Positions 18,901-51,769 of a stretch of 64,000 bases of DNA are shown one piece after another. How positions within the stretch are numbered: position 1 is the first letter of the stretch; each line of letters begins with the position of its first letter. A model generated the notes under the pieces. It was given only the letters and a program-made list of their open reading frames with translations, was not told the DNA's origin and made no database searches. Location of the stretch: contig OZ287083.1 of NCBI GenBank assembly GCA_965645245.1, positions 744,001 through 808,000 on the forward strand, read 5' to 3'. A program made the translations under genes and the position numbers. Source of the stretch: Massalongia carnosa (Eukaryota).

Positions 18901-19308
18901 TTCAAAAGACAAACAACCGTCACATTGTTATCAACCGAAGCAGAGTATATGGCACTCACCTTAGCAGCAAAGAAGACAACATGGCTACGTTTACTGATGA
19001 TCGAACTCGGATTGATGACTTCTGATGACGGATCCCTGACAAAAAACGTGTTAAGAGGAGAAGGCACAATTGCATTGAAAGGCGACAATCAAAGCGCTAT
19101 AACACTGGCCAATAACCCTGTATTACACTCCAGGACTAAGCATATCGACATTCAGCACTAGTTCATACGAAACGAGGCGCTAGAAGGAAGAATCGACCTC
19201 ACCTATGTTCCGACCGAAGACATGATTGCAGATGGACTGACAAAAACCCTCACGCACGTCAAGTTCTTCTCCTTTATCAGACAGCTCAACATGGACAAAC
19301 AGACATAA
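15928..19308 (+). pseudogene. Copia gag-pol pseudogene (gag, pre-integrase, integrase, RT, RNase H)
   Basis: WHGRLGH, FRTDFGTE, QEENGVAER, FKARWV, QLDIVTAFLNG, FVDD, STEAEY, GDNQSAI, RTKHIDI. Multiple stops and frameshifts; no protease motif seen. Confidence 0.9.
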
Positions 19309-28539: not shown

Positions 28540-28710
28540 TGTAACGGTTCGACTAAGCGTGGTGCGGACGGCAGAACCTACAGCGAACATAGCAGGAGTC
28601 CCAGTTATAGTAGAATAGAGCTTGGTCTGCGGACTAAGTATTGTGCCTTTTGGTCGGGAAGGACAGGTGGCGCAATGGTAGAAGTCTATTCACTATCTCG
28701 CTTCGTCACA
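28540..28710. repeat. Short solo LTR (171 bp), copy 1
   Basis: TGTAACG...CGTCACA, TSD TTTCT, near-identical to 50833-51002. Confidence 0.9.
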
Positions 28711-29681
28711 TTTCTTGCTCGACTTCCTACTTTGATTTTTTGTTTTTTCTTGTCAGATCGATCAGTAAGTTTGTGATTAAAAAGCAGTTTCATTTATTTT
28801 TCGATAAAAGTTGACTTATTTCACGAATTGAAATACGCGTTAAACTTTGATAAGTCTTGATCAGTTTTTAATAATTATCAATTTTCATGAATTTAGTTTT
28901 ATTTTCTTCTTTAGTTATTTATTCTAGAAAATCTACTTTTATTTGATAAAATAGACTTTTTATTAAATTTATTTATAGTTGTACTTTCTTCAGTTTCTTT
29001 TTAAATTATTATACAACCGTTTGCAAAATAGTTTGCCGAACTTTGAACCCCGAAACTGCGCAGTAAAAAAAAATAAGCGACAGAATTGGACCACAAACCA
29101 GAATTTGATGTAATAGCTAATGCCCTCCTCCCCTTTATACCGCATTTTGCAGTCTATAGGATAGTACAATTAATAATTGTCAAGGGACTGGATTGGATGG
29201 TCAAGCTTTCTAATTGACTGAGTCTATAGCTACAACTTGGCTAGATTGGCTATTCAAGACGTCGGACAAGGAGCCAGAACTTTCGAGACTCGACCCCTTC
29301 TTTTATATCTGTTCCTCACCTCCTTACCCCTTTGTTTCCTTGATCTTCTATGTCTCCTATTCATCTCCTTTTCCTAAGTTAATACGAAGACACCTAATGG
29401 GGACCGGGTAATTATGGTTTCGATGATCGGAGGCGGAGCCGTACTCGATCTAACCGCATCGAGAAAGGTTGGAACAGCGCGCACTGACCAATGAAGCTGT
29501 GGTAGGTCTAATGAACCTGCGGTAGGTCCAATAAACCCGCGGTAGCTCCAATGAACCTGCAGTACGGTAGGTAGGGACCGGATAGAGGGGGCAACTAGGG
29601 ATAAGGCCGAGATCCTTTTGGTTCGAAGCCGTTTCATGACAGTAGCCCCCCTCTCAAAGGCAGAGCTCCTGCGTTGCAATT

Positions 29682-32600
29682 TTAATCACGATACCGACAA
29701 CGAGGAATTTGGCACGGGGTGAGATAAGGGCCAGCCGCGTTGGGGTAAGCTTGATGATACTCGTCTAGGGCTTGCTGACAGTTGGTGATGTAGTTGAATG
29801 GTTCCCAGGTGGAGGCGTGTCCTTCCCAGCCGACAAGATACTTCAGAAGTGGGGGTTGGAAACGTCGATCGAGTTTGGAATTCAGAATGCTATTTACATA
29901 CTATTCTCGCTGGCCGTCTTCAGCAATAACGGGGTTTTGAGGCTCCGGTATTTGTCCGGGAAGCGGGTCATTGGCGTCGTGTTGCAATAGATTGACGTGA
30001 AAAACGGGATGAATTTTGACGGTATCGGGAAGTTCGATTTGAACAATCAGTGGGTTGGGAAAAACCTTGCTGACCCGATAGGGATCGATATTTCGATCGT
30101 CCAATTTAACTGTTGGGCGGGCGGTCTGGATGTTTCTGGTGCTCAGCCATACCATATCTCCTACGAAATAGCGGGGGCAGGGACGTCGCTTAGCATTTGC
30201 GGTTGATTCATAAGATGCTTGTGCCATTAGCATTTCGTCTCGTAGATGAGTATCGATGTCCTGCATTTTGTCCACAAACTGCTTGGCTGCAATCAGGTTT
30301 GCCCTTCCCTGAGCGGTCAGGTCTTGAGGTAACGGTTCCTCCGGTTCAAATCCCACACGAGGATGTTGTCCGAAGTTGGCTAGGAAGGGGGAGGCTAGAA
30401 TACTAGAAGAGTCGGTATTATTGCTAGCGAATTCGGCGCCGGGAAGCCATTGTGCCCAGTCATCTTGCATGTAGTTGACATAAGCCCTAAGATAATGCTC
30501 CATAGTGGCATTAGCTCTTTCGGTTTGTCTATCAGTCTCAGGATGATAACCATTAGAAAGTTTGGCATCGATTTTCAACCTTTTGCACATCAGTTCCCAG
30601 AAGTCAGAGGTAAACTGAGAGCCGCGGTCGGAGACTAGGACATCGGGAAGGCCATGCAATTTCCAGACATTCTGATAGAAAGAATTGGCCGCTTCATTAA
30701 CTTCCATGGTTGCTGTGGGGACAAAGTGTCGCATTTTAGAAAGACGGTCTAATAAACACTAAGACATAGCGATAGGTGATTCCCATAAAGGTGCTGGGAG
30801 TCAGTGGTCCTACATAATCCATGGAGACATCACGTTATCTACGTTCTGGAGGGGGTAACGGACGCAGCCAGCCTTGATAACGCTGACGAGATGGTTTTAA
30901 TCTTTTGCAGGTGTGGCAATTCCGAATAAATCTTTTGATGGACTGATGCATACTAGGCCACCAATGTGTTCGATTTACTAATTCGTGACATTTGGAACGG
31001 CCTGGATGTCCTCCGGCGACGCTATCGTGGGCAAGTTGAATGATACGAAGTCGTAGGCGGTCTGATCGAGGCACATATTTCTTATTCCGAAAATATCGGA
31101 CACCTTCTCTGTCTTCGCATTCTGCTAGCTGAATTTGATTATGATGTCTTTCGTTATTGGGAAGAGCTTCTAGAATTCTGGGTGCGAATTGATCTCGTGC
31201 GAGGGCTTATTCCCAAAGAAGCTGAGTGAGAATATCCTCATCTGGATTGATTGGGCCCTCGTCTAGCTGAGGTTCTTCGGGGTGAGGTTCTTCGTCATTT
31301 AGAAAGGCTAGGGCTAGAAGAATGGAAGAAAGATAGCTTTTTGCGATTTCCTCGTCTAGGTTTTCGGTTTTTAGAATAGTTTGATGCTGATATTTCCTTC
31401 GATCGTCCGTATTATCCCCTTCTTTAGGAAGATCTCCTGATCGTCGAGTCAAAGCGTCCGGTTTTCCTCCCGCTTTTCCTGGTCGGTAGACTATCTTGAA
31501 GTCAAAACAAGAAAGAAATTCACTCCACCTGGCCTGACGACGACTGAGTTGTTTGGTCGAGGCAAAGTATTCGAGGTTTTTATGATCAGATATGACGTTA
31601 ATGGGAAATGCAGATCCTTCCAATTCTGATCTCCATTCTTCGAAACATCGAACAATTGCCATTAATTCTTTGTCATATATCTCATAGTTGCATTCAGCCG
31701 GATTGTGTTTTCTGGAAAAGTAGGCGACAGGATGAAGCACTCCCTTATCATCATACTGAGAAAGAATGCCACCCGACACATAGTCGGAGGCGTCGGTTTC
31801 TACGACTATTGGACGATCCAGATCGAAATGTCTCAATATAACGTCAGAGGTGAAGGCTTTTTCAAGATTTCGAAAGCGGTTTGACATTTTTCAGTTTATC
31901 GAAATTCCGTTTCCTTTTTGGTCAGATTGGTTAGGGGGCCGGCTATGTTGCTAAATCCATACACGAATCGTCTATAAAAGTTAGCAAATCCCAAAAAGCT
32001 TTGCACGTCTTTCACATTGACGGGAATTAGCCAGTTCGTGACGGTTTCCACTTTGGCTGGATCTATCTTTATTCCCATTGTGGTCACAATCAGCCCTAGG
32101 TATGCAATTTCGGTCACGTGAAATTTGCACTTGGTGATATCGGCCTGCAGACCAGCGTCTCGAAGTCTGGAGAGTATTTTCTTGACGTGTGTCTCGTGTT
32201 CTAGCTCATTATCGCTGTAGATGAGAATGTAATCTAAATAGGCCGTGCAGAAGTCGTCAAGATTCTCGCTAAGGGTGTCATTGATAAAATATTGGAAAGA
32301 GGCGGGTCCGTTGTACAGACCGAATGGCAGGACCAGAGACTCGAACAGGCCAAAACGAGTGCGAAATGCGGTGAGTTCTTCATCTCCTTCTTTTATTCGA
32401 AGCCTGTTAAAGGCGGCGATGATGTCTAGCTTGGTGAAAATCTTGGCTCTAGACAATCGATTTAGTGTCTCGGCGATCAGAGGTAGCGGATAGCGATTCT
32501 TTATCGTGATGGCATTTAGGCCCCGATAGTCAATACAAAAGCGAAGTCCTCCTCCAGGCTTTTTGACGAACATTACTGGTGAGGCAGCGTGAGAGCGACT

Positions 32601-34033
32601 AGCTCTAATAAATCCTTTGGCTAAATTCTCATCTACATAGCGACGAAGCTCCTCGATTTCATTGCGACTCATTCTATAAAGAGCCTGACTAGGGGCCTGA
32701 GTGCCTTCTTTTAACTTGATAGCATGATCGTACGGGCGGTGATCGGGTAGGATGTCGGAGTTTTTCTTTAAAAAAACATCTAGGAAGTCGTGATATTGCT
32801 TGGGCAGAAAAGGAGCTGGATCGACGTTTTTTCTTTCCCGATATTCGTCTAATTCCTCCTGGGTAACGGTTGCGTGCAAGGTTAGGGCTTTATTCATTTT
32901 GAATAGGGCTAGATAGATTTCCTTTTCACTGAGACTCGACTGGAGAGACAATGGTTGATAACTTAGGCTGGGACTAGAATTGATAACTAGGCTGGGACTT
33001 TGATTGAGGGCTAGACTGGGAACTGGGCTAGGTGAGGCTTCTATTCCTAAGAAGCGATCGATTTCTTTCATCGAAAGAACAAAGATATCGTGATTTTTCT
33101 ACCGACTTAGTCGGTTGAAGGAGGCGGCTTCGATTTCGCAGACGTTTAGCTGCAGGCTAGGGATATTTTTGCGTGCTTTCTGTTCGGCACGTCTTTGAGT
33201 AGATGTACGAAGTAAAGAAGGACTTCTATATCGAATTTTCGGAGTGAGTCCTTGCTGAATTGTCTTCTCGATACGGCTCGGTTCATTATTTGATAGGGGC
33301 TCGAGGGGGGTTTCGATTTTGGGCTCGATTTGTTTAGTTGAAGAGGTATTTTTTTTCTCTTGTTTTAGAAAAGTTTTCGACGTACTGATAATTTGCATAG
33401 ACGTGATGTCTTCGAAAACTTTCTTGACTGAGTTGACATCCTCAGCCTCCCAGACTTTCTGACTTTCGACTGGGGTGAGGAATTCTCCCTCGATGGCATG
33501 AATCTTGACAGGATAGGGGCAATAATGAGTGAGGCAGAAAGAAGAGGCAAAGGTGAGGGTATTGTTTCCAAAATCAGCTACAGCATTGTGCCGTCGAAGC
33601 CATGGATGACCCAGGACAATTGGGTAATGTTTTAATCCGGTGACAAATAGAAATAATCTTTCTACATGACCTTCTAGATCCATGATAATTTCGGCTACCT
33701 TGGTGATGTTTCCGGACAGGGCTGCCTGGCCGTCAAATCCTTCAAGGCGTCGAGGATATTTGAGGGGATGAAGAGGGATTTGATGAGTTTGCGCAAAGTT
33801 TTCATCAATAAATGAGTAGCCAGATGCACCACAATCGACAAGGTTAAATGTTTTAATTCTGAATCTAGATAAACGTAAGTACAGGCAACTACCATGTGGC
33901 TGTCTTTGAACGTTTTATCTGATTCGAACAGCTCCAAAGCGGACGCTACGGAAAAACGAGTATTAGACCTTAGAAAAGGGGAAAATGAGTCGGCTATCAA
34001 ACAAGAAGAGATGAAAACGGGAGGTCCCTGCAC
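29682..34033 (-). pseudogene. Gypsy-1 pol (protease, RT, RNase H, integrase, chromodomain)
   Basis: [26 protein letters not shown] (mutated YLDD), [45 protein letters not shown]. Confidence 0.92.
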
Positions 34034-34050
34034 GCGACTAAGCGCAGGGA

Positions 34051-35229
34051 CTAGGCTTTTTCCTGATTGTTATCAGGACCCTCGGGGATGAGATCAATGG
34101 TTCCAAGGTGAGTTGATTTTTTATTGGGACAGTGAATAGCTGACTTCCCGGGATGCTGGCGTTTGCAATAAATACAGAGCTTCCAGTCTTCGCAAATCTT
34201 CCTAACTCCCTCGGTTTTTAATGAATAGCCCTTGACTGCGGCCATAGCAGAGCTAAGATCCATCGGGTCGCCGACGGGTAGAGGTGCTGGGGGAGTGGAA
34301 GAGGAGGGGACAGAAGCAGCTCTGACTGCTGAGGGCTGATTGGTTGATTGTCCCTTTCGGGACGTTGAGGCGATGGCGGCCGAAGCATTGAGTCCCGCGG
34401 TAGTGTTGGAGGATTTAGGGGCGAGGTGACGAATTTGACGCAGGCCGCGGTCCGTCTCCAACCATATGGTGACGTGTTCATTGAAGGTAATCGGTTGTCG
34501 ATTGGTACCCGGAACCCGATACATGAGGGCCGCTGACTGAGTTGAATAATTGACGTTTGTCTTTATAGCGTCAATCAGAGAGGCGTCCTCCATTCTCGAG
34601 CGATCCTTCTTTTGGGAAAACAGGTTATAGTATTCCTCAAAGCTCATACTGCCCTGTTTCAACGTTTCTCGGAGATATTTTCAAGCATCTTCTTGTTCGT
34701 AGGGGTTGCCACAGGCACGACGAAGAGCGAATCGCCAGTCGGAGAAGGAGGTCAGTGTGCAAAGGCCGTCAACTCGTTAGGAGTTCATGAGGTTGTGAGC
34801 CTTTTTTCCGATGATTAGTCGATTTTCTGCATACGCGATTTTGGATTTGTCGGAGGGATAGCGATCATTGTTTATATGCATTCGCTGAATGAGGCTTTGT
34901 TCCCAGGCGTCTAGTCGAGCTTCGTCCCCGTCGTATTCCGGAATATCTGGGAGCTTTTCTGAACGTGGTTCGGGGATCCTGGCTAGGAGTAACTTCATCA
35001 GGGCAGCTATCTGGGGATCCAAGGATGGGGCAAGAGCTGGGTTGAGAGTCGAGACAGGGGGATCGGAAGCGTAAGGGGATAGGGTTTTGGCAGCGGCGCG
35101 AAGCTGAGCTAATTCGTTCGACATGGCTTCTATTTCGTTCAAGAACTGTTGAGGGTTGGATTGAAGACGTTCCTGAACAAATCTCACACGCTCGTCCTGA
35201 TGAGGGGGGTTTTCTTCCTGAGAAGACAT
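34051..35229 (-). pseudogene. Gypsy-1 gag
   Basis: SEKLPDIPEY, LKQG, GDPMDL, CIYCKRQH; interrupted near 34777. Confidence 0.85.
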
Positions 35230-35472
35230 GGCTGGGTTGAAAAAGGAATGGATGGAGAAAAGTGCTATAGAAGGCACTTTTTAAGGGATAGGTCCGACGT
35301 AATGTCAAGGGACTGGATTGGATTGTCAAGCTTTCTAATTGACTGAGTCTATAGCTACAGCTAGGCTAGATTGGCTATTCAAGACGTCGGATAAGGAGCC
35401 AGAACTTTCGAGACTCGACCCCTTCTTTTATATCTGTTCCTTATCTCCTTACCCCTTTGTTTCCTTGATCTT

Positions 35473-35746
35473 TGTTGAAATAGGTATATGACTATGGCTA
35501 TATGGCTATGTAATAATAAAGGTATGTATGACCGTGATATTAAGGATGAAGAGTTGCTAGGCAGCAATCTTTTCCTATTACTGGTCACCCCCTTCTAAGC
35601 GAGGTGATCTTATCTTATCTTGGGACTAAGCCTAATGCGGCATCTACGGTTTCCATAGATGATCTGTCTATCTAGGGCAGCCGTAGGTGCTATGTTCATT
35701 GTACTGATAGGTGTTCATTGTGCTGGTAGGAATTGGATATTCAGCC
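35473..35746 (-). repeat. Solo LTR of the 14201 copia family, inserted in the Gypsy-1 5' LTR
   Basis: Reverse complement of 14201-14465. TSD ATCTT at 35468-35472 and 35747-35751. Confidence 0.93.
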
Positions 35747-36719
35747 ATCTTCGATGTCTCCTATTCATCTCTTTTTCCTAAGTTAATACGAAGACACCTA
35801 ATGGGGACCGGGTAATTATGGTTTCGAAGATCGGAGGCGGAGCCGTACTCGATCTAACCGCATCGAGAAGGTTGGACCAGCGCGCACTGACCAATAAAGC
35901 TGTGGTAGGTCTAATGAACCTGCGGTAGGTCTAATGAACCCGCGGTAGGTCTAATGAACCCGCGGTAGGTCTAATGAACCCGCGGTAGTTCCAATGAACC
36001 TGCGTTAGGTCCAATGAACCCGCGGTAGCTCCAATGAACCTGCGGTACGGTAGGTAGGGACAGGATAGAGGGGGCAACTAGGGATAAGGCCGAGATCCTT
36101 TTGGTTCGAAGCCGTTTCATGACAATAATATCCTTTTGATTGTCGTTTGTATAAACTTTCAACGTAGTAAATCCAGTTATCATGCCTTGAAAATAGCGTC
36201 CTAAACAGCCTCCAAAACAGCCCCAAACAGCCCTAAACAACCCAGAAAACGGGCATCTACTACTGAATTGCCTAGGAACTCAGCACCTCTATCCAAATAA
36301 GGCTTAGAAGCAATCCTCCTAGATCGTCATCACCAGCTTTAAATGCCCGTATTCCTGATATTCTATCACGTCTACCTTTACTATCTCCACTAGCTTCTCC
36401 TTCGGCTTTGCCTTTACCTCCTCGTCTCCTCCTTCCCGAGCCAAGGAATGTTCGTCCGACTCGCAATAGTACGCCTTCTCCTTATCTTTCTGAGTTATCT
36501 AGTGCTCCTGAACCTGAGCCTGAGCCTGAGCACGAGCCTGTTTTGTTTACTCTAGTGATAAAGAAAGTTTTTTGAAGCGGAAAAGATAGATAGCAAAGTA
36601 AAGGCGGCAAAGGTAGATAGAACTCAGAGGATCAATATTCTTTCTCTGCATAAACAACAGGAAGCGTTGTTGAGGGGTAAAGAAGAACTCTACCGGGTCG
36701 GTGGCAAGTCAGGTGATAG

Positions 36720-39703
36720 TGAAGAAGGGTAGTCGTGCGTGCTAATGGAAGGTGGTGGTACGTGATGGTAGATGGCGAACTGAGCAGTGAACATACACAC
36801 ACACACAAACGTCTAAATGGACCTACGACTGCATAGACATGAAAAGAACTCGACGACTGAACGACTAAAGGACTGAACGACTAGTTGATGCACGAAATGA
36901 ACCTGTATCGATGACTACGTGACACGACGATGATGATGACAGCGTAGGTGATAGAAGATGATGATCGAGAATGATGTCCAGAGATAATGTAGAAAATGCC
37001 AGCAAAAAACCCGTTTTATCCCCACACAGGCCTGCCATGTCACCTGACCATAGATGACACATGTCGCCCTACCACATAGCCTCACACCCCAAAGATGCCG
37101 TCCCCTGGCATCTGTCAACAATTCCCCAGCTTATCTCTCCTGACCAATCAGAACTCGTCTCTGAGCCCTCGCCTCGCCTCTAGTCTGTCCGCCTCACTAG
37201 TCTGCCCTGCGGGCCAATCACAAGTCACATGATCACGTCACATGTGAAAAACACGACTCACATCGACACCTGTCCGCTGCTGAATAGCCTCCATCATCGT
37301 CACTATTGCCTGCCAGCCCTCGGGGGTGGACACGAACTGAATAAATCGTTGTTGACTGACTGATAGGTCTGTTGACGGTGATCCGGACGACTGCATGGAG
37401 TTAGCCTGAGGCGGAATGAACGCACCGCTCGCCCGATAGGCCTCAAATGTTGACAACGTAACCGTTTCAGGTAATGGCAAGGCATCAACCGGTGGTGCAG
37501 CTGGTAGGGCTGATGATAACGACGGAGGTGCTGACGGTGCTGGTGCTGACGCTGACTGATTAGATAGGCCGGGCCTGTCAAATGGAGTGGAACAATATGA
37601 AGCCGGAGGTGCAGGTAGTGTCCAGCGCGTACGTTTTGTACGTCTAGCCCGTGCGTGCCTAGCTCGGTCTGATTGCCATGGCCCTGACCTACATGAAGGT
37701 GGAAACGACCTCACTCAATTGGCTGACACGGTGGCACTAGCTGAAGATGAACTTGACCGTGCGAGAATTTCTTTCACTTTCGTCAGCAATTCAGTCAATA
37801 TCTCTCGACCCACGACAGTATGCAGCAATATTTTCGTGTTATCAGCACCTGCTAGTTGACATAGGGCGTCCGAAAGGGGAAGACTGGACAGTCGACACAT
37901 AGGAACTATCCAGGTGGAGGCCTGCAAATATAAAAACCCTAGTGCTCGACGAGAGATAGATAACTGAATGAGCGGCAAAGTAGACAGTTATTCATCGACA
38001 TTTGACGAAACGAAGGTCACTGATTGAACGAATAATGACGCTGAAAGTGTTAAACGTGCTGAACGAAAAGATGACGCTGAACGGGACGGTGATGCTGAAC
38101 GAGAAGGTGCTAAATAGTCGTCAATTTCGACGTAGCTGACGTCCGGAAGACGTCCGGCCATAGCTAGCTCCACATTGACCTCAGAGGCTGAATGAAATGA
38201 TGTTGATTTTGGCCTTTCCGGCCCCTTTTTTGATGACTCAATGACTGACTTAGTGTCCGCAGACGCAGTGACAGTAGACGCAGCGGACTCAGTTGTCGGC
38301 CTTTTCTCGGCCCGCGCTAGCTCAGTGCTAGAACCAGGTGCTGAACGTAAAATTGCTGATTTTGGCCCTTCCGGCCCACGTGTAGATGACTCAATTGCTG
38401 ACTCAGTGTCAGCTGACTTGATAGCGGTGATGACAGGTGCCGAAGACACGGCAGAACGGAAAGCGATGACGGGTGACGGTGGTGCGGTAGACGGTGCAGA
38501 CGGTGCAGACATAGTGACCGGTGGTGACACGGCGACTGTTGGAAAAATAGACAGCGATTCTGGAAAGTTTGTATGGACCACATGGGCCTTTTGTGCCCTA
38601 TATTTCGCAAACAATTCCTCCATGCTCATGTATAATCTTGTTGATGCAACCGAGGCAGTTGATGATGATACTGACGGTGCTGATGAACTGACAGACAATG
38701 CCCTCGACACGGAGATAGACCGGCGCTGTCTCGGCAGATGACGTCGCTGTCGCTTGCTAATAGGTGCGCTAGGTGAAGAAGAAGAAGCAGATAAAGATAA
38801 AGATATAGATGGAGATGCACTAGTGCTAGAGGTTGGTGGACTAGTGGTGGACGTGGAAGTAGACGACTCGAACGACTCGGACGACTCAGACGACTCGGAG
38901 GCAGAAACGGAGGCTCTTTTGGTAGGCCTACCACGTTTCGCTCGATTATAGTGTCGCTGTCGTTGACGTGCTCGTTTTAATGGTAGTGGAGTAGGTGAGG
39001 TCGGTCTAGTACTCTCGGACACGGTCGCATTGGCCCAAATGCAGAATGTAATGCACGAGGACATGGCCATCAGTGCAGTGAATAGAATGATTAGATAGTT
39101 CCTGGAATGTACGTCTAAAACGCATGCAGTCGGTGCTGGGATAGTGACGGAAGCGGTAGCGGTGGTAAAGAAGCTAATGGGGGCCATGTTGCTCGATGTG
39201 GTGCTGAAGGACTCGGTCGTGTACGGTCGGAGGTGGAGTAGACAGAGTGATCAGAGGTGCAAAACAAGGAGGTTTTTCGACGTTTGATGCTCAGTTCAAC
39301 CGCTCAATTGCACAAGTACAATCATATATCGCACCGTGGTCGCCAATGAAGAAGGGTAGTCGTGCGTGCTAAAGGAAGGTGGTGGTACGTGATGGTAGAT
39401 AGCGAACTGAGCAGTGAACATACACACACACACAAACGTCTGAATGGACCTACGACTGCATAGACATGAAAAGAACTCGACGACTGAACGACTAAACGAC
39501 TGAACGACTAGTTGATGCACGAAATTAACGTGTGTCGATAACTACGTGACACGACGATGATGATGACAGCGTAGATGATAGAAGATGATGATCGAGAATG
39601 ATATCTAGAGATGATAAAGACAACGCCAGCAAAAAACCCGTTTTATCCCCACACAGGCCTGCCATGTCACCTGACCATAGATGACACATGTCGCCCCACC
39701 ATA
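36720..39703 (-). mobile_element. Non-autonomous LTR element with single unknown ORF, copy 1
   Basis: ~357-bp direct repeats at 36720-37076 and 39347-39703, 4-bp TSD ATAG, PBS TGGCGACCACGGTGCGAT at 39328-39345 (minus strand), G-rich tract before the 3' LTR. Confidence 0.88.
37238..39187 (-). pseudogene. ~649-codon Ser/Pro/Ala/Thr-rich ORF of unknown function with two premature stops
   Basis: ORF-track pieces 37988-39187, 37715-37978 and 37238-37714 are in one frame. Both stops are sense codons in copy 2. Confidence 0.75.
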
Positions 39704-40220
39704 ATAGGTCAGGTGGTCGGGTGCTGGCGTCTTAGTGTTCCGGTTATATGAGTCTTTTTCTCGCACTTTTCCTTCTCATCTTTCGGGATATCTATCTTCG
39801 GATCATATTGCTATCAACATATAGCTATCATAGACACTTTCATTCATACAGCTAGTGGGCAATTGATAGGCATGATGATTTAATTCTCGATGTAGTAAAG
39901 CTCTATTGATTCGGTCATTTGTTTATTTGTTTTATCCTTCTAACGTTTGGCACAACCCAGTTTATCCCTTTACAGCGTTAGCCAGCACTTATGCTGATAA
40001 TAAGGGCTGGTCTTGTCATAGAGTATCTGCTACCTTTACTATCGTTTGGAAGGCCATTAAAAAGGATAAAAAACATACTACTTCCTTGCTCAAATATTCA
40101 GCCTATCAAACATGAGCAAACGTAGAAGACATCCTTCGTCAGCTTAATTATGATAACAAAAGAGGACTGAGTGTAGAGTGTCTCTATTATTTTACCCGTA
40201 GAAGCGATAGAATCGTTCCA

Positions 40221-40585
40221 TTGACGATTAATTCAGCTGTTGATAACGCTCTAGTCAATAATTCTCGACATGAATCTGCTACTGCTATCATTGTTGCTGA
40301 CGCTGTCGCTGGAGGCAAAGGCAGAAGCAAAAAGAGGACTATAAAGACGGATAAACTGTTGGCTCAGCGAGAAGAGCGTGCAATTTTACGAGATGATCTG
40401 GATAAACGTCAAGAGGCCTTACAAAGTTTAGGGTTATGCACTAGTTTAAGATGCAAATTCAAATGCAAATATTGCTGGATTGACAATAAAAAATATTATC
40501 CGCTAAATGCAGCTTATATTAATGCTTGGACTCAAGCTATAAAGAAGGGAAAATCTACTCATGAAAGGCCTCTACCGACTACATT
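40221..40585 (+). pseudogene. Cys-rich ORF relic interrupted by LINE-C; resumes after 42199
   Basis: CTSLRCKFKCKYCWIDNKKYYPL..W; cut exactly at the LINE TSD. Confidence 0.35.
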
Positions 40586-42186
40586 GATTGATTGATTTTT
40601 CTTACGCCGATATGACACCAGCTGAAGCTGGCCCATGCGGGAGATACTACATAGGCTATATAAAGGCAGAAAACCCGAACGGGTAAAAAACTGCTCCTGC
40701 GTACCAGGTTTGTAGAGGACTCGCTCTTTCCCCGGGTTGATCTCTACGGTTTGGGAAACCCGCTATACCCGTTATGCGCCTGAGTAAGTGCAAGAATAAA
40801 AGAGAAGAAAAGAAAATAAGTAGAAGAGAAAACCAATTCTCCTCTCATTATTGCTCCGTCATTTGCGCGGCAATGGTGTACTGTGTTAGTATGCCCGTAC
40901 GCATAAGCCATGCAGTGATTATTTTGATCGCTTTGGGGTCTGTTATCAGTTTTTGATAATCCAGCGAGCCAGCTGCACGCAACATATCGATTCTATTATG
41001 CAATCCGCAGAACATTATCACATGTTTCGCCGTTTGAAAGCGGCTTCCGCACAGGCAGGCCGCGGACTCAATGTCTGGCACCTTGCGTTTGAATAGAAAA
41101 CTCGCTAATCCGATTTTCTCTGTTCTAATTTGAATTGCGAGGGAGCTTTGCGCCTTATTCAGCAGCTTGTGCGTGTTCAACCTGTTTTTGTGCAATGGAC
41201 CCGACTGTGCTATTGTTGGATCAAGCGTATGTATTGATTGATACGCTATCCATTTGTCCTTCCATTTTTCTTTAAATCGTTTCGCTATGATTCCGTCTCT
41301 TTCTCTTTGAAGTGCGGCATATTCTGCTCGTTTTTCCTCTTGTGCATTCTCCGCTTTTTCCCATGGTGGTGTGCGTTTGGGCTTTCTCTTTGTTGATACT
41401 TCAGCTGTCAGCTTGGCCACCCATCTCTGTCTACGAGCTCCCGGTGTTTCTCCAATAATCCGTTGTCGCCCTCTTTTCCCTTTCAATCTCGTTCTGATTT
41501 TCTCGCATGCCTGTTCTATGACTTTTGCCTGACCGTTGTGTTGTAGCCTCGATCTACCTTTGGCCTGCAGATGATCCAAATGTTGCGTCAATGGACAGAT
41601 GAATGTTTCCGCCTGTAACACCTCGATGGGTGTGGCCCTGTACGCTCCGGCTACTACTCGTAAACATTTGTTTTGTACGATCTCGAGTTTGCTTTTCCTC
41701 GTGACTTTGACGTGCTTTTGTGTTTCCTCCGGCGTGTGCCATACCAGAGAACCATGGGTCATTGCCGGGCGTACCACCGCCGTGTACACGTGACGGGCTT
41801 GTAGGAGGGTCGCACCCCAAGTGGCTGCGGCGATTCTAGTCAGCGCTCTCGTTTGTCTCGTCATTTTCTTCTGTATCTCTTTGTAGTGCGCCGACCAATT
41901 GAGCCTCGTGTCTATGTACACCCCCAGCACTCGTACAGATTTCGTGACGTTGAGTAGTTTGCCGTTTACTGTGAAGGAAGCTTCGAGATTGAATTTCTTG
42001 GGATTTTTTGCTAGATGTATGAGCTCGTATTTATGCGGCGCGAACACGGAGCCGTGGCGTTTCGCCCATCGTTCGCAATTCTCGTGTATTTCTTTCAATG
42101 TTTTGCAATTTTCTTCCGTGGATTTGCCATATGTCAGGATGTTCACGTCGTCTACGAATCCTATGCCTGCCGCGTTTGTGCTGGGT
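40586..42186 (-). mobile_element. 5'-truncated Tad1-like LINE (LINE-C), related to LINE-A
   Basis: ORF2 C-terminal half starting at the FVDD region, 3' UTR homologous to 8840-8950, (AATC)n tail, 13-bp TSD TACCGACTACATT at 40573-40585 and 42187-42199. Confidence 0.93.
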
Positions 42187-42356
42187 TACCGACTACATTA
42201 GAGGTTCTTTTTTTATCAAAACGAAAGGCCGATGCTCTCGAAAAGAAAGAGTATAAAGCAATCGTTAAAGAATCCGTCCTTCGGCAAAGTATTCGATGAC
42301 TGCAGGTCCAGCATATCTACCTCCTTATTATTAATTTTTATATCCATATCAATAAC

Positions 42357-42733
42357 TGTTGAATATCCAACTCCTATCAGTATAATGAATATGGCATCTA
42401 GGAAACCGTAGAAGCCGTATTAAACCTAGTCCTAAGATAAGATAAAGATTACCTTGCTTAATAAAAGGTGACTAGTAATAGGATAAAGACTGCTGAACAG
42501 CACTCTTTATCCTTAACATCACGGTTATAAATACACTTATTATTATATAGTTATATAGCTATAGTCATATGCATATTAACTCATGTTATAAACCTGGAAG
42601 GGTGTTATTGATTCTACACGAATCGAAAACCTTTTATCCGTAGTACTATAATGGTAAATAAGCTAAGCAATCGTCTTCTTTTGAATTCTTACAGACAAGA
42701 AGCTGAATCATCTGTGTCTTTAGAAACAATCCC
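42357..42733 (+). repeat. Diverged copia LTR plus start of leader (same family as 14201)
   Basis: Begins TGTTGAATATCCAA and is colinear with 14201-14612, including a decayed PBS (GTTATAAACC). Confidence 0.8.
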
Positions 42734-42742
42734 AACCCCTTG

Positions 42743-42893
42743 TACGCCGTGTAAAGGGTTGGGTTTTCGCCACAAAATTGCTTTTTCGCCAACGGGTTTT
42801 TCTTTCAAACTCAACCTGGACACCAAAAATCATAGGGTTCGCCACAAACGGGTTGGGTGTTCAGTAGAGAAACCCGACCCGTTGCGCGGCGTA
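42743..42893. mobile_element. hAT-family MITE (151 bp), copy 2, inverted relative to copy 1
   Basis: TACGCC...GGCGTA ends. Exact 8-bp TSD ACCCCTTG at 42735-42742 and 42894-42901. Confidence 0.92.
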
Positions 42894-43674
42894 ACCCCTT
42901 GACTATTTATTATTACAAGAATAATACAAATTACAACGATTATTCTTGATTCATAAAAGCAAGAGATATTGAAGAAGGGTAGTCATGCGTGCTAATGGAA
43001 GGTAGTGGTTCGTGATGATAGATTGTGAACTGAGCAGTGAATACACACACACACAATCGTCTGAATAGACCTACGACTGCATAGACATTAAAGAAGGGTA
43101 GTCGTGCGTGCTAATGGAAGGTGATAGTACGTGATGATAGATGACGAACTGAGCAGTGAATACATACACATACGCCGCGGAATGGGTTGGGTTATTAAAT
43201 TGAGAACCCAACCCAATGGGTTTTGGGTTGGGTTGGGTTATCGTTGTGTTACCCAACAGAAAAGGGTACTGATATACATATGGACACCCCATCCGCTACC
43301 TAGACACACCCTCTCCGGCTACCTAGACACACCCCTTCCGGCTTTTCAATCATTGTAGATTTATTTTAATGACTATCACAAAGTAAAATATAGATTATAG
43401 ATAAAACATTTATTTCGTTGACGTCGAACTACCATAAAGACTATCACAAATTCATATGCTATCTTCTATCGAATATCGAAGTATGTCGCCCATTCATGGC
43501 TTCCTATTTAAAACTCGTAAAGAAAGTCTCTCGCCATCTCTTCCTTTACTCTCCACCTTCTTGTCACCCCCACCCTCTCTATTGCCCTCCTCTACCTCAT
43601 CCTCCACCACACCCTCCTCCTCCGCCTCCTCCTCCTCCTCATCCACTACACCCTTTCCTCCTCCTCCTCCTCTA

Positions 43675-43874
43675 NNNNNNNNNNNNNNNNNNNNNNNNNN
43701 NNNNNNNNNNNNNNNNNNNNNNNNNNNNNNNNNNNNNNNNNNNNNNNNNNNNNNNNNNNNNNNNNNNNNNNNNNNNNNNNNNNNNNNNNNNNNNNNNNNN
43801 NNNNNNNNNNNNNNNNNNNNNNNNNNNNNNNNNNNNNNNNNNNNNNNNNNNNNNNNNNNNNNNNNNNNNNNNNN
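43675..43874. other. Assembly gap (200 N) next to a (CCT)n-rich tract
   Basis: Run of N characters in the sequence. Confidence 0.99.
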
Positions 43875-43893
43875 TTTCTGTAGAATAATTAGC

Positions 43894-46426
43894 TCAAGAA
43901 GACACGAAAGTAAGTGACCCGATACTTACATCTCGCGCTGAGACCTGCTCAACCTGCGATGACCCGATCTGCGTTAACTGATCCTCGTCATTGTTATCGT
44001 CTTCTTCATCACTAATGTAGACCTTCTGAAAAACCTGTGTTAGGTCTTCATGTCGCCTTTGCATCTCATTAGTCAAATCCTCAAGACTCATGCTTTCTTC
44101 TTCTTCCAAATCTACGTGTAAACTTGCATCTGCATTCTCCTTCTGATCGTGGAAACGAACCATCATCATCGCGGAGAATGTATCCGGATGAAAATTCTTG
44201 CGATGATCGTAAAGGGCTCCCGCAACGCTAAAAACGCGCTCACATCCAACGCCCGCGGCTGGTACAGCAAGGATGTCCCTGGCAACCATACTCATTTGTG
44301 GAAATTCCGGCTCGAGATCTTTCCACTGTTGTAGAATAGGACCCGAACGTTCATGCATCACTGTGTACTATAAATAGGTTGAACACAATGAGAAAAGACC
44401 TGATTTATTGTATCAGTTAACCTACCTCGCTGACGATAGCAGTTGAACTCGTCATCTAGAGCGAGGGGAGTAGCATTATTCGTACTCAGAAGAAGATCCA
44501 GATTATTCAAGTCTCGAATGACTGCGACGTTACGCCCGCGTACTTGTGAGGTTTGAGAATTCTCGTAGATATCGAATTCCGCTTCCAGAGATTGCCAATA
44601 TTGATCTTCCTATCGACTTTCCCCATAGGGCGCATCCCAATTGGGACCCTTGAAAATTAGGTCCTTCTTATTAGGAGATAGTAATGCCGCCTTTCCATAT
44701 AGATAACCTAATGACCCCTGAGTTTTAGAATAGTATTGACGTAATTTCGTTGCAGCCGCCTCGATGCCATTCAATAGCGCCTGTTTCCACGATACTCGCT
44801 TACGAGATAATCTTGCGCGAGATTGATCCAGATGATCGAATAGTTTATTGTAGATCTCAAACACCTGATAAATGGTCGGTTGCTTTGATTGACCAATCAT
44901 CTTTGTGAGGATGCAGAATAGCTTCGTTAAATCGATAAGATATTCTATCTGTAACCATTCCACGTCGAGCAATCTCAAATACTCGGATTTATGTTTATCA
45001 TGATATCTATTCAGCGCTTGTCGCAACTTGAGCGCTCGAATTAACATGTGACATGTGGAGTCCCATCGAGTATTTACATCTTGAGAAAGCTTAAGTACTA
45101 TACCGCTGACCGAGTTTCCAGTGCGTCTCTCTTCGTCATTCAATGCTCGTTGAACAGCGTAGAACTTCTCCTTACGTAAATTGCTACTGTTAATGCAAAC
45201 AGCTAATGCTCGAACCTAATCGAAATTTAGAACGACTACCACAACGACTACCATAAAATAAATCTTGCCTTAGCTAGCGTAAGGGGAACTCCAGGTGTCG
45301 GGTTTTCGAAATCCCGTCTATCTTGCTTATCATCCCAGCTAGTTTGGAAATCGGCATTTTTCGGATTAATATGAATACACCCAATTAGATGTTTTACGGC
45401 AAGTTGAATTACATGCGATAAACAAGGCACTCGCTGTATCTCATTAGCATTAGTGTGTAGAAGTTCCAAGGCTCGATTGCTTCGTATCATTCGTCGCAAC
45501 TCATCTACCAATGTTGTGTTATTAGATGCACTATCCGTGGTTAATGCCAAAACACGATCTTCAATAGAATGTCTAATTAAAACGCTGTTCAATACTTCAG
45601 CAAGTTTTATTCCCGTGTGTGAGCCTTCAACGTGTTCGAAAGCAAGAAGCACTTCGTGATAATTCTATTTATCGTCAATGAAGTAAGCATTGATGGCCAG
45701 ATAACCTTGACGATTAAATGACGACCAACAATCCAAAGCCAGAGAGACCTTTGAACTACCCCTAGGTAGCCTCTCGAGCAAAAGTGGAATAATCTCTTGA
45801 CTTCGGGTCATCAAGCGATTCTTGATTGTCGATAGTGAAGGAAACTGTACATTATCGAGCAGACAGTTGAACGCTCTTTGCAATTCGACATTGGCGACAC
45901 TTCGTAACGGTAGCCCAAGAGCAACAATCATACGAAGCAATTGAGGCGTGAAATCATCCTTTTTTATTTTACGCCCGTTGAGAGTTAAGGCCTCTTGTCT
46001 TTTGCTTCAATCTAATATTGATTAGCAGAGCACGTAATGTGGTAGTCATTGTGGTAGTCATACTTCGGCACGATATCCAACCTTTAAGGAAAGTTACTTC
46101 ATTCCTTTCAATGTCGACGCCTTTTTACAGGACTCGGAATTTAAGTTATTAGTCATGCAGTTGTTTCCAGAGCCCAGTAAGGGATGAGTCAAGACCAGGG
46201 AGCATCGCGACCAGATTATTTTGGGATTACTATCGCCCACAGTGGCGCCTTCCTGAAACTCTTTCCATTCCGCCGCCTTTCTTTTAGTCGATCCCCAATC
46301 GATCTTCTTTATCGCCTTTCTACTCTTCTCTTCATTAGCAAAATGCCATCTCGTACTTCGCCACCATTCCATAAACTCCTCGCTCTTCTCGGCCACATAT
46401 GCGTAGCATCTGGTGGGTTTGCCCAC
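43894..46426 (-). pseudogene. hAT transposase with introns and premature stops
   Basis: LALDCWSS, TTDSASNN, CLSHVIQL, QDVNTRWDST, and dimerisation domain ARDILAVPAAGVGCERVFS. Confidence 0.9.
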
Positions 46427-49400
46427 AACTTAAAGATCATATATCTCTGAATCTATCATCTGCGAGCTGCTTATTATTGCGAATGACGAGGATTGTATAT
46501 ATAGAAATGTTAGGAATTGTAATGGGCTACGAGACCAGTAAGCTTATCACGAGCGACACTGATCTCGAAAGGGGAAATGCTCAGCGTGAGAGGAGGAAGA
46601 TAGCTACTACGTGCTAGTCTCCGAGAGTATACGTGATCCAAAGAACTAATGGATGTGGAAGTGCTTAGACCAAGAGATCTCGTCCGAGACCTAAACGTAG
46701 GTTGTTCATAGAATAAAGACTAATTGCTAACGAATACTACAAGATTCGTTCTGATATTTATCCTACTCACCCCAAGCCTATAGCCTTGGGAGCCTTGGAG
46801 CCTTAGGAGCCTTGCAAGCCTTGGGAGCCTTGCGAGCCTTACAGCCTTGCAATCCACATCCGACTTTATCGCATTACATCCAACCATCCCTCAAGATCCA
46901 TCCACGAACTCGGCGTTCGTTGGATCATCTAGTCAGCCTCGAGCAGCCTTCTAGATCTTCCCTTGCAAGGTAAAACAATTCTACCCCAGGCTAGATCCCT
47001 CACTACATGCCTCAGGCTATGTAGCTTCATTTCGCCGTCACCACTACCTAGTGATGGAAGGTTACCTCCGACTGAATACCTCGCTACACTGCGGACCTGC
47101 CTCTAGACACAAGGTCTAGACAACGAGGTCATGTAGGTTCATTCAGCCGACATCACTACCAACCTAGTAATAAAGGTTGAAGCTGAAGTTTACACCGGGG
47201 AGCCAAGCTCAAGCTGCGTCCAGCGAGCCGTGCCTCCTGCTACCTCTCTTGAACTATCAAGAGATCCAGTAGCTCCGAGTAGGCCAGTAGATTCCATATA
47301 GAGTTCCTCGGCGTCTCCACAGGAGTCCGCCTTACACTCCATGGCAATCTACCACCACGGCCTCGACAGGTGTTTGATCTGTAAGTAGTCAAGAACGTGA
47401 TAACAATAACTCCGAAGTTTCGGGCAAGATGGCAGTGTGTCAGCCTCGACGGCTTATGCGACTTCGTACTACGGCATGGTCCACGCTAGTTAATCCCGCA
47501 ACCGCCATAGGCGAGCACGTATCCCTCTAGCGCCATCCGTATTACAGGAATGTAGCTGTAGAAATGTAACTTCATTGACTAGATTATGCTGCGATAAAGC
47601 ATTAATAACTACCTTTATGTTCTAAACACTCAGTCCAATCCAACGCATGCATACATATTCAACCTAAACTAGCCAACCCAACATAGTCATACTGAACCTA
47701 ACCATACCCAACCTAACCTAGTTGCCACGCGCAACCACTGATAACCTGTCTGTTTGCCTGTTTGCTTTTAGATATGTACAGAATACCCGGACCAGGTGGC
47801 AGAACTGGTGCGATAAGAAAACCAACTACCAGGAAGAGTATGCCTGGTGGTAAGTAGATGGTATAGTTGAGAATACATAAGATACTAACGCCGATCGCGA
47901 CGTTGATAAGTCAAGGTTATTGATTACCATTACTAAGCATGTGATTTGGGTAACCCAATGAAAACCCAACCCGAACCCAACCCAACCCAACCCATTCCGC
48001 GGCGTACACAAACACAAACGTCTGAATAGACCTACGACTGCATAGACATGAAAAGAACTCGACGACTGAACGACTGAACGACTAGTTGATGTGCGAAATG
48101 AACGTGTGTCGATCACTAACTGACACGACGATAATAATGACAGCTTAGGTGATAGAAGATGATGTCCCGAGATGATAAAGAAAACGCCAGCAAAAAACCC
48201 GTTTTATCCCCACACAGGCCTGCCATGTCACCTGACCATAGATGACACATGTCGCCCCACTACATAGCCTCATACCCCAAAGATGCCCTCCCCTGGCATC
48301 TGTCAACACTTCCCCAGCTCACCTCTCCTGACCAATCAGAACTCGTCTCTGAGCCCTCGCCTCGCCTCTAGTCTGTCCGCCTCACTATTCTGCCCTGCGG
48401 GCCAATCATAACTCACATGATTACGTCACATGTGAAAAACACGACTATTATCGACCCCTATCCGCTGCTGAATAGCCTCCATCATCGTCACTATTGCCTG
48501 CCAGCCCTCGGTGGTGGACACGAACTGAATAAATCGTTGTTGACTGACTGATGGAAACGTTGACGGTGATCTAGATGACTGCATGGAGTTAGCCTGAGGC
48601 GGAATGAACGCACCGCTCGCCCGATGGGCCTCAAATGTTGACGACGTGACTGTTTCAGGTAATGGCAAGGCATCAACCGGTGGTGCAGCTGGTAGGGCTG
48701 ATGATAACGACGGAGATGCTGACGGTGCTGGTGCTGACGCTGACTGATTATATAGGCCGGGCCTGTCAAATAGAGTGGAATAATATGAAACCGGAGGTAC
48801 AGGTAGTGTCCAGCGCGTACGTTTTCCACGTCTAGCCCGTGCGTGCCTAGCTCGGTCTGACTGCCATGGCCCTGACCTACATGGAGGTGGAAACGACCTC
48901 ACCCGATTGGCTGACACGGCGGCACTAGCTGATGACCGTGCGAGAACTTCTTTCACTTTTGTCAGCAACCCGGTCAAAATCTCTCGACCCACGACAGTGT
49001 GCAGCAGTAATTTCCTGTTATCAGCACCTGCTAGTTGATTTATGGCTTCCGAAAGGGGAAGGCTGGAAAGTCGACACATAGGAACTATCCAGGTAAAGGC
49101 CTGCAAATTTAAAAACCCTAGTGCTCGACGATAGATAGATGACTGAATGAGCGGCAAAGTAGACAGATATTCATCGATATTTGACGAAACAAAGGTTACT
49201 GATTGAACAAATAATGCCGCTAAATGTGTTGAACGTGCTGAACGAAAAGATGACGCTAAACGAGACGGTGATGCTGAACGAGAAGATGCTAAATAGTCGT
49301 CAATTTCGACGTAGCTGACGTCCGGAAGACGTCCGGCCATAGCTAGCTCCACATTGACCTCAGAGGCTGAATGAAATGATGTTGATTTTGTCCTTTCCGG

Positions 49401-50288
49401 CCCCTTTTTTGATGACTCAATGACTTACTTAATGTCAGCAGAAGCAGTGACAGTAGACGCAGCGGACTCAGTAGTCGTCCTTTCCCCGGCCCGCGCTAGC
49501 TCAGTGCTAGAACCAGGTGCTGAACGTAAAATTGCTGATTATGGCCCTTCCGGCCCACGTGTAGATGACTCAATTGCTGACTCAGTGTCAGCTGACTCGA
49601 TAGCGGTGATGACAGGTGCCGAAGACACGGCAGAACGGAAAGCGGTGGCGGGTGACGGTAGTGTGTTGGACGGTGCAGACATGAACGGTGTAGACGGTGC
49701 AGACATAGTGACCGGTGGTGACACGGCGACTGCTAGAAAAATAGGCAGCGATTCTGGACAGTTTGTATGTGCCACATAGGTCTTTTGTGCCCATATTTCG
49801 CGAACAATTCCTCCATGCTCATGTATGACCTTATTGATACAACCGAGGCAGTTGATAATGACACTTACGGTGCTGATAAAATAACAGACGATGCCCTCGA
49901 CACGGAGATACACCAGCTATTTTGCTGTCGCTTTCTCGGCAGATTACGACGTTGTCGCTTGTTCAGAGGTGAATTTGTAGATGAAGATGAAAGTGAAGAT
50001 GAAGGTGAACTAGTGATAGACGTGAACGACTCGAACGACTCGGACGACTCGGAGGTCGAAACAGAGTCTCTTTTGCTAGGCCTGCCACGTTTCGTTCGTC
50101 TTCGCTGACGTGCTTGCTTCACTGATGACGGAGTAGGTGCAGTCAAACTAGTCCTGTAGGTCACGGTCGCATGATTGGCCCAAAAGCAGAAGGTGCAGCA
50201 CGAGATCATGGCCATCAGTGCAGTGAACAGAACGACTAGCCGGTCCTAGAAATGGACGTCTGGAACGCATGCAGTCGGTGAAACGGTA

Positions 50289-51769
50289 ACGTATTAGCCA
50301 CCCATTCGGGCCAGCCACCCAATCGGGCCACCCCTCAAAATCTAGTAGCCGAATCTTAATCTTTTCCTTCCAATCCACCACTATCACTCCTTTATCGATA
50401 AACTATAGATAAAATGCCTAATAACATACCCGTACATGACTCTGCTACTAGATTACACTTGGCTATTGAAGAAATACGCAAAAACCCGGGCATTTCGCCG
50501 CGGGAGATAGCGCGCATTTACAGAGTTCCCTGATCGACCTTACAGGCCAGTTTTCAAGGCAGACGTGACGCAAAAACCTCCCATGAGGCCACTCAAAGAC
50601 TATAAGTAGAAGAAGAATAGGATTTGATCATGTGGATAGATCGGATGACTGCATGGGGTTGGCCACCTAGTATTCAACACCTTGAGGGCATGACCAAAAG
50701 TCTGCTGGAAGCAAAGGGGACTCAAAACCCCTAGGACATCATTGGTATAAAACTATCATGAATAGACATCCCCAGTTCAAAACTAAAGTTAAAAGAAACT
50801 TGGATCAATCCAGAAAAGACGCAAGTCATCCCTGTAACGGTTCGACCATGCGTGGTGCGGACGGCAGGACCTACAGCGAACATAGCGGGAGTCCCAGTTA
50901 TAGTAGAATAGAGGTTGGTCTGCGGACTAAGTATTGTGCCTTTTAGTCGGGAGGACAGGTGGCGCAATGGTAGAAATCTATTCACTATCTCGCTTCGTCA
51001 CAATCCCAAAATCCTGAAGGAATGGTTTGAACTGTACATGACTACCCGAGCAAAGTGTGGAGTCGCAGATGAAGATATTTACAATATGGATGAAAAGGGT
51101 TTTGCCATGGGCATTGCGGATAGTTCTAAAGTGATAGTCAAGAGGGAAACAACCTCATCAATATCATGAATGCATGGCGGGGGGCAGGTCTTATTCCATA
51201 CAATCCCGAGCATGTTTTAGGCAAACTGCCTAGATCTATCATTCCTTCACCTCGCAAAATCGTTACCACTACCCTCACAACGAACAAACGCATTCAGGTA
51301 GCTAGCGATGCTTTGTTAACCCGTGTAACTCCATCTCTCGCGCGCATGTTGAATTGCTTCAAACAACCGCATTGAATCCCGTGGCTGATAGAGTTATTCT
51401 ACGGCATTTCAATCAGGAACTATTTGAAAAACAGGCTCAGCGACGCCAAAAGGCGTCTAGAAAGGGGTGCGATAAAGTGAGGGTGCTAACTGTGGATGAG
51501 GAGCTGGCTAAGATCGAGGAGAAACAGCAAAAAGAGGAGGCATTTGCCAGAGAAAAGGAGCGATATCATGCTTTAAATGGTAAAGTGAAGTTCGCAAAGG
51601 CCGTCTGGAAAGAAATGCGTATGGATAGTGATATTTTTAGTTAATTTTGGGGATGGTAGAAGCATCGTGGTGATGTTGTTTTCCTTTTGGTGGAAGGGGA
51701 TAATTGGCCAGGATATTTTTTATGAGGTGGCCCGATTAGGTGGCTGGCCCGAATGGGTGGCTAATACGT
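50289..51769 (+). mobile_element. Fot1/pogo-like DNA transposon, internally deleted
   Basis: ~45-bp TIRs starting ACGTATTAGCCACCCATTCGGGCC, TA TSD. HTH region and YNMDEKGFAMG jump directly to AWRGAGLIPYNP, so the DDE core is missing. Confidence 0.92.
50833..51002. repeat. Short solo LTR (170 bp), copy 2, inside the Fot1-like element
   Basis: TGTAACG...CGTCACA, TSD ATCCC. Confidence 0.9.

Follow-up and report, generated by a model that had tools for sequence, protein, structure and literature searches.

A probable non-autonomous LTR retrotransposon family with an orphan reading frame in the gag position in a Massalongia carnosa assembly

Introduction

Non-autonomous long terminal repeat (LTR) retrotransposons are usually classed as non-coding, like terminal-repeat retrotransposons in miniature (TRIM) and large retrotransposon derivatives (LARD), or as gag-only, like TR-GAG elements. 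We analyzed a 64,000-nt stretch of the Massalongia carnosa assembly GCA_965645245.1 (contig OZ287083.1, positions 744,001 to 808,000, forward strand), here called the window. All coordinates below are window positions. The element under study, copy 1, is an LTR retrotransposon that occupies 2984 bp of the minus strand (36720–39703). A relative, copy 2, lies at 42970–52318. A preliminary description of this DNA had presented them as two independent insertions of a non-autonomous family that carries one large open reading frame (ORF) as cargo. The family formed by copies 1 and 2 differs from the usual classes in a 649-codon ORF that was intact in the ancestor, shows no sign of descent from gag and includes a conserved hydrophobic anchor.

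The definitions of TRIM and LARD elements are reportedly those of Kalendar et al. 2004, Witte et al. 2001 and the Wicker classification. The interiors of both are non-coding by definition. Copy 1 resembles them in its LTRs, putative primer binding site (PBS), polypurine tract (PPT) and target site duplication (TSD), in the lack of enzymes, and in its presumed mobilization in trans. Its size falls between those typical of TRIM and LARD elements. A difference is that its interior was filled ancestrally by a 649-codon frame. BARE-2 of barley keeps an ORF in the gag position and relies on the pol of a partner, and its gag is clearly homologous to that of BARE-1, whereas for the copy 1 ORF we know of no partner and no homology. 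Copy 1 also lacks the protease, reverse transcriptase (RT), RNase H and integrase that characterize autonomous Ty1/copia and Ty3/gypsy elements.

TR-GAG elements of plants (PMC4350172) are multi-copy, non-autonomous and shorter than 4 kb. They have LTRs, a PBS and a PPT but lack pol, and their single ORF sits where gag is expected and has recognizable gag domains (UBN2 and a Zn finger). Copy 1 falls in this size range, likewise lacks pol, and has LTRs, a putative PBS, a PPT-like tract and one frame at the place of gag. The differences are its fungal host, its 4-bp TSD, an N-terminal hydrophobic segment, and an ORF in which no gag domain was found even at E ≤ 1. Judged from these features, TR-GAG elements are the closest architectural match, although the gag homology that defines them was not detected in copy 1.

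Structure of copy 1

Copy 1 appears to retain all the cis parts for retrotransposition. Its 3' LTR (36720–37076) and 5' LTR (39347–39703), both on the minus strand, are direct repeats of 357 bp each that are 95.0% identical, with 18 mismatches over their length. On the sense strand, the LTR starts with TGTGG and ends with CTTCTTCA (a TTCA end). The start TGTGG is present in the 3' LTR of copy 1 and in copy 2. The 5' LTR of copy 1 starts with TATGG, a private change, leaving TG...CA-type termini with one end mutated.

The putative PBS, TGGCGACCACGGTGCGAT, spans 18 nt at 39345..39328 of the minus strand, and a single base (39346) separates it from the 5' LTR. It begins with TGG, and all 18 nt are identical in the two copies. 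The exact 18-mer had two matches in the window, one per copy, against a chance expectation of 0.01. At the other end of the interior, a G-rich PPT-like tract, GGGGTGTGAGGCTA, adjoins the 3' LTR at 37090..37077 of the minus strand. It is kept in copy 2 (48265–48278) with one change. The leader between PBS and ATG (39188–39327, minus strand) is well conserved between copies 1 and 2 and holds a short upstream ATG frame. It is followed by the orphan ORF (37238–39187, minus strand), which has its ATG at 39187 and its terminal TGA at 37238–37240.

Copy 1 is flanked by ATAG, an unstranded feature, at 36716–36719 and 39704–39707. No 5-bp duplication was found around it under any boundary shift. Copy 2 is flanked by ATAT at 42966–42969 and 52319–52322, and its flanks differ from those of copy 1. 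With different flanks and different TSDs, the two copies are independent insertions. The TSDs of the copia element at 14201–19641 (AATCT) and the gypsy element at 29178–36127 (ATAAT) are both 5 bp long.

Pfam analysis found no gag, protease, RT, RNase H or integrase domain in the copy 1 interior. The same scan detected RT, RNase H, integrase and protease in neighboring elements, and even decayed gag regions of the window were still weakly detected (gypsy Retrotrans_gag, E = 0.034; copia Retrotran_gag_2, E = 1.8e-4). The preliminary description had listed TG...CA repeats of about 357 bp, an 18-nt PBS one base past the 5' LTR, a G-rich tract before the 3' LTR, 4-bp TSDs at both copies against 5-bp TSDs at other readable LTR insertions, and an interior free of gag and pol motifs. 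All of these were borne out.

Ancestry of the orphan reading frame

The sense frame of copy 1 (39250..37238, minus strand) contains two internal stop codons, TAA at 37988–37990 and TGA at 37715–37717, which divide it into 399, 90 and 158 codons. Together with the terminal TGA, it has 3 stops in 671 codons, whereas the other five frames have 17–75. In 2000 composition-matched first-order Markov simulations, 3 or fewer stops never occurred (0/2000), and the simulated mean was 21.5.

The codons at the two internal stop sites are TAT and CGG in copy 2. The database protein P0010, apparently encoded by the window itself as the copy 2 product, has Y and R at these sites. Contigs of four sequencing runs were also compared with positions 36500–39900 of the window; one of the runs is labeled as a lichen metagenome, which is a hint at habitat only. 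Wherever a contig covers position 37988 (7, 3, 1 and 1 contigs across the four runs), the codon there is Tyr. Tyr and Arg at the stop sites in copy 2 and P0010, and Tyr at 37988 in the contigs, indicated that the ancestral frame was open for about 649 codons from the ATG at 39187. It is now broken in both window copies. Thus, the single large ORF claimed earlier was recovered as an ancestral state, whereas in copy 1 as it stands the frame is cut by TAA and TGA.

Length changes between the two copies were then compared by region. In the ORF, 8 of 9 indels are multiples of three (3, 9, 9, 12, 12, 15, 15 and 36 nt; the ninth is 1 nt), versus none of 7 in the LTRs and leader.

The frame might also not be a gene, being a chance or relic open frame in a C/T-rich, repeat-containing, non-coding interior like that of a LARD. 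A neutral substitution pattern, a low-complexity composition (Ser 129 of 649 residues), very low AlphaFold confidence, a low protein-atlas recognition score and an internal repeat with a 153-bp spacing are in line with such a relic. However, the simulations and the stop counts of the other five frames, the predominance of 3n indels inside the ORF and their absence outside, and an N-terminal motif kept in a homologue that is otherwise only about 32% identical all argue against it. We consider this explanation very unlikely.

The internal repeat is 78 bp long (38187–38264 and 38340–38417, 78% identical). It gives two 51-residue units of the form S-A-D-T-x-S-x-I-E-S-S...G-P-E-x-P-K-S.

Properties and relatives of the ORF protein

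The read-through protein of 649 residues contains 129 Ser, 77 Ala, 58 Pro and 54 Thr. A hydrophobic segment lies at about residues 30–52 (Kyte–Doolittle 19-residue mean, 2.34). The 50 residues after it include 12 Lys/Arg, and two further basic clusters occur later. The structure of the whole read-through was modeled using AlphaFold2. The mean predicted local distance difference test score (pLDDT) was 38.5, and most of the chain was predicted as disorder. A long helix was predicted at 29–56 and a C-terminal helical hairpin at about 609–646 (pLDDT 72–84), the sole part above 70. The C-terminal 304 residues, modeled with a 6-row alignment, had a pLDDT of 37.7. Neither model was good enough to justify a fold search.

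Domain and homology searches gave no family. The three ORF pieces had no Pfam family at E ≤ 0.01, the two larger of them and P0010 had nothing gag-like at E ≤ 1, and Pfam found nothing in the relatives P0002, P0004 and P0006. The best match of a PDB sequence search was an antibody light chain (E = 0.18), which is noise. A comparison of the ORF with two gag-position ORFs of window elements by hhalign gave probabilities of 0.1–0.2%. Matches of the ORF in the window by tblastn were limited to the two copies.

HMMER analysis, run without a length limit against 1.84 billion representatives, found five proteins of 60–248 residues. Four are close fragments (67–89% identity), among them P0003, an internally deleted form. 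The remaining protein, P0006 (248 residues), is a distant homologue outside the subfamily of copies 1 and 2. It keeps the N-terminal hydrophobic motif, with 19 of 33 residues identical (58%), and a second weak stretch; apart from the motif it is about 32% identical. Word-based searches added two more fragments and P0010, giving seven short relatives besides P0010. The relatives come from a few large ENA contigs, which for the five HMMER proteins are 1.97–2.44 Mb long. A homologue search with residues 330–649 at near lengths found none, P0006 as a query found itself only, and a protein atlas search with P0002 gave no usable match. As no longer relative was found, no known gag-pol carries the ORF sequence. 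These results showed that the ORF protein, as represented in the collections searched, is lineage-restricted, and it is predicted to be a mostly disordered, Ser/Ala/Pro/Thr-rich protein.

These data bear on whether the ORF is true cargo, meaning a gene with no part in transposition that was captured or arose de novo. A membrane-anchored protein spread by the retroelement would be one example. Such a gene would account for the absence of gag features in Pfam and for a frame kept open in the ancestor, and the conserved 19–23-residue hydrophobic segment followed by a basic cluster resembles a membrane anchor. However, no cellular homologue was found in the 1.84 billion representatives or in a 5.8-billion-sequence collection. 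All relatives are fragments resembling other element copies, and all five comparable copies from the window and databases bear stops, deletions or truncations. The gag position of the ORF, its ancestral openness and its retention in P0006, which represents another and diverged lineage, are easier to reconcile with a protein that serves the element than with a captured passenger. We therefore regard true cargo as improbable, and the cargo role given to the ORF in the preliminary description was not demonstrated.

Family members in other sequencing runs

The four sequencing runs contained 1482, 420, 100 and 113 contig pieces matching 36500–39900, indicating that the family is multi-copy and fragmented in the assemblies. 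Eighteen contigs, found in all four runs, represent empty sites. They join 36712–36717 to 39707–39713 and skip the element. In the simplest empty site, a single 4-nt ATTG takes the place of ATAG...ATAG in the window, in keeping with a 4-bp duplication. Most of the empty-site contigs hold extra 13-nt units between the left and right flanks. These units indicated that the flank is itself a repeat and that the empty sites are paralogous, not alleles.

The target of copy 1 (36128–36719 and 39704–40586) was observed as a multi-copy repeat in the four runs, with GAGTCAGGTGATT-like 13-nt units in variable number at the insertion point.

Contig depth and alternative junctions were also recorded. Summed depth in LTR bins was about 4–6 times that in interior bins. 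Depth is not a copy number, and the excess weakly suggests solo LTRs or further elements that carry this LTR. In two of the four runs, X4 (3 contigs) and X5 (2 contigs), there are sequences that have the LTR end and PBS of copy 1 and depart from it exactly at 39328, the point at which one would expect a partner element to part from it. A 30-nt consensus of this alternative interior was not found in the window with up to 3 mismatches allowed.

Such contigs bear on the possibility that copy 1 is simply an internally deleted derivative. The genome would then contain, elsewhere, an autonomous element that has these LTRs, this PBS and this first ORF (a divergent gag or an accessory gene), and the 3-kb form would have lost pol. 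The different interior of X4 and X5 next to a shared LTR end and PBS, the higher depth of the LTR bins, and P0003, which shows that internal deletions occur in the family, are consistent with this. However, the alternative interior begins right at the PBS and is thus without the leader or ORF of copy 1. No ORF-to-pol breakpoint was seen among 24 of the 219 loose ends, the ORF has no similarity to the gag-position ORFs of window elements, and the HMMER search returned neither a gag-pol nor any long relative. The preliminary description had proposed checking for an alignment of the interior to a longer autonomous element. None was found in the representatives or among the window gag-position ORFs, and a plain deletion derivative is not supported; we hold it to be unlikely, with some chance of being right.

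The PBS in metagenome contigs

Metagenome contigs were scanned for the LTR end and PBS. No locus had both. The PBS alone was found at 102 loci, mostly high-GC chance matches, and these loci did not match the element or its ORF by blastn or tblastn. The low-GC loci are unrelated TRIM-like mini LTR elements in which the identical 18-nt PBS adjoins the LTRs (L010, L025, L030, L032, L041, L044, L063, L072 and L078; L040 and L046). They form one group with 87-bp LTRs and a total length of about 510 bp, and another with 132-bp LTRs. In the three copies checked, their TSDs are 5 bp (ATCGT in L030, AGTTG in L032 and GGGAC in L072), in contrast to 4 bp in copies 1 and 2. At L061, the ORFs downstream of the PBS match are host genes. 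In the literature, a 12-nt part of the PBS was matched by unrelated primer lists only. The presence of the same 18-mer in unrelated TRIM-like families suggested that the primer tRNA is common to several fungal LTR families and gives no pointer to the helper. Some of the TRIM-like copies carrying this PBS are heavily AT-mutated.

Copy 2 and its nested insertions

Copy 2 is about 86–91% identical to copy 1, and its LTR pair is 89.8% identical. It carries two nested terminal inverted repeat (TIR) transposons and an additional LTR fragment, and it has a stop codon of its own as well as a 1-nt deletion. The earlier claim of two insertions held with regard to flanks and 4-bp TSDs, but copy 2 is no simple copy.

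Next to its left TSD, the extra LTR fragment (42970–43089, minus strand) corresponds to LTR positions 1–121 in plus-strand numbering and adjoins the start of the second LTR at 43090. The junction reads GACAT followed directly by TAAAGAAGG. The fragment could come either from a self-nested insertion at ACAT followed by LTR–LTR recombination, or from a partial tandem duplication. The 3' LTR (43090–48264, minus strand) is split into 43090–43173 and 48006–48264 by a 4.8-kb TIR element (43174–48005). This element has telomere-like GGGTT runs in its inverted repeats and a 200-N gap inside (43675–43874), and its 201-aa frame had no Pfam match. The interior (48265–51981, minus strand) contains the ORF remnant, with the TAA and the 1-nt deletion, and the PBS at 51963–51980. 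A TIR transposon of about 1.5 kb, with TIRs of about 38 bp, is inserted into the ORF at about 50281–51797. Its frames had no Pfam domains, and a 171-bp fragment at 28540–28710 (95% identical) belongs to the same family. The 5' LTR (51982–52318, minus strand) has the sense start TGTGG and is followed by the right TSD.

Copies 1 and 2 are both old and dead. Repeat-induced point mutation was considered as a cause of decay and rejected, as the indices were not of the expected kind (TpA/ApT 0.73). No Rfam match at the gathering threshold was found in 36000–53000. No RNA dataset was listed among the sequencing runs with the element, which counts neither for nor against expression.

Neighboring elements

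The window is a fungal stretch rich in transposable elements (TEs), with a Fung_rhodopsin-domain frame and a P450 frame at 457–4528. Besides copies 1 and 2 and the TIR elements, it contains long interspersed nuclear element (LINE) fragments, the copia element, the gypsy element at 29178–36127 and another gypsy element at about 54–62 kb. The sequence adjoining the 5' LTR of the gypsy element at 29178–36127 differs from the PBS of copies 1 and 2. Apart from the two copies, no element in the window has their LTR or PBS, so any helper must lie elsewhere. The preliminary description had likewise proposed a helper that is not intact in the window.

A solo LTR of the copia family (14201–14465 type, 92–94% identical) lies reversed at 35473–35743 inside the right LTR of the same gypsy element. 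Its TSD is most likely 5 bp, and its LTR end is mutated. A tandem array of 51-bp units (about 88–91% identical) lies at 14685–15434 in the copia element, between the 5' LTR and the gag region.

Discussion

We propose that copy 1 is an old, inactivated member of a fungal family of non-autonomous LTR retrotransposons of about 3 kb, mobilized by a helper. Taken as a whole, this explanation is probable. The lack of an own pol and the contig pieces in four runs bore out the earlier designation as a non-autonomous family. In the established cycle of LTR retrotransposons, the element RNA is reverse-transcribed from a tRNA primer and the product is integrated. By analogy, the RNA of copy 1 would have been transcribed from the 5' LTR on the window minus strand and then reverse-transcribed from the tRNA primer. 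Enzymes supplied in trans would have carried out reverse transcription and integration, and the helper integrase would make 4-bp staggered cuts at ATA(T/G)-like sites. Such a helper would be distinct from the copia and gypsy elements of the window with their 5-bp TSDs.

The ORF protein may act for the element itself, as a gag substitute that binds the element's own RNA and packages it. We put this forward tentatively, as a minority possibility. The gag position after the leader, the persistence in the diverged P0006 and the basic clusters suggested this role. A host-derived cargo is less likely than a gag substitute.

Several observations weigh against the explanation proposed here for copy 1 and its ORF. 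No helper was seen in the 64-kb window. The primer tRNA was not found, and ARAGORN detected no tRNA genes in the 13 scanned of the 102 PBS loci. The PPT-like tract is imperfect, with purines at only 10 of 14 positions. A gag-like role would fall to a protein with no gag domain, zinc knuckle or usable fold, and its N-terminal membrane-type segment is atypical of Gag. The protein language-model recognition score is low. Several of the 3n indels in the ORF sit in short repeats with a 3n period, and slippage without selection may explain them. Substitutions between the copies are neutral, with 59, 60 and 58 at the three codon positions, and the ratio of nonsynonymous to synonymous substitution rates (dN/dS) is 0.84 for the ORF versus 0.75 and 0.72 in shifted control frames. 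This neutral pattern does not point directly to purifying selection at the amino-acid level. It would be expected if most differences arose after insertion. The LTR–LTR divergence (5.0% in copy 1 and 10.2% in copy 2) and the divergence between the two interiors (9.3%) are compatible with this.

Another alternative concerns the nature of the ORF product. It may not be a Gag at all, but a membrane-anchored, largely disordered protein kept open by two diverged non-autonomous LTR families of lichen-associated fungi. We think this unlikely. If true, the elements would form a coding, pol-less class of retroelements. Their protein would either tether RNA or virus-like particles to a membrane or have an effect on the host, and they would be propagated by a helper lineage with 4-bp TSDs not yet described in these fungi.

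The 4-bp TSD offers a lead to the helper of the proposed non-autonomous family. Ylt1 of Yarrowia is said to make 4-bp TSDs, which makes its lineage a plausible type of helper. This length is the only match between copy 1 and the Ylt1-like lineage, and copy 1 has no pol for placement in a tree, so the likeness is a lead only. The TSD length of Ylt1 is not stated in passages of a Yarrowia paper (PMC5014426). A Ylt1-like Ty3/gypsy lineage is present in ascomycetes, according to passages of PMC2864245. A literature search combining "4-bp target site duplication", "LTR retrotransposon" and "fungal" found no paper.

The finding does not touch any major open question. Should the ORF serve the element, the family would be an example of a gag-position protein that has drifted far or been replaced while the element stayed mobilizable. 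The 4-bp TSD would flag a helper lineage distinct from the surrounding copia and gypsy elements with 5-bp TSDs, which may be useful for the TE annotation of lichen-associated fungal genomes.

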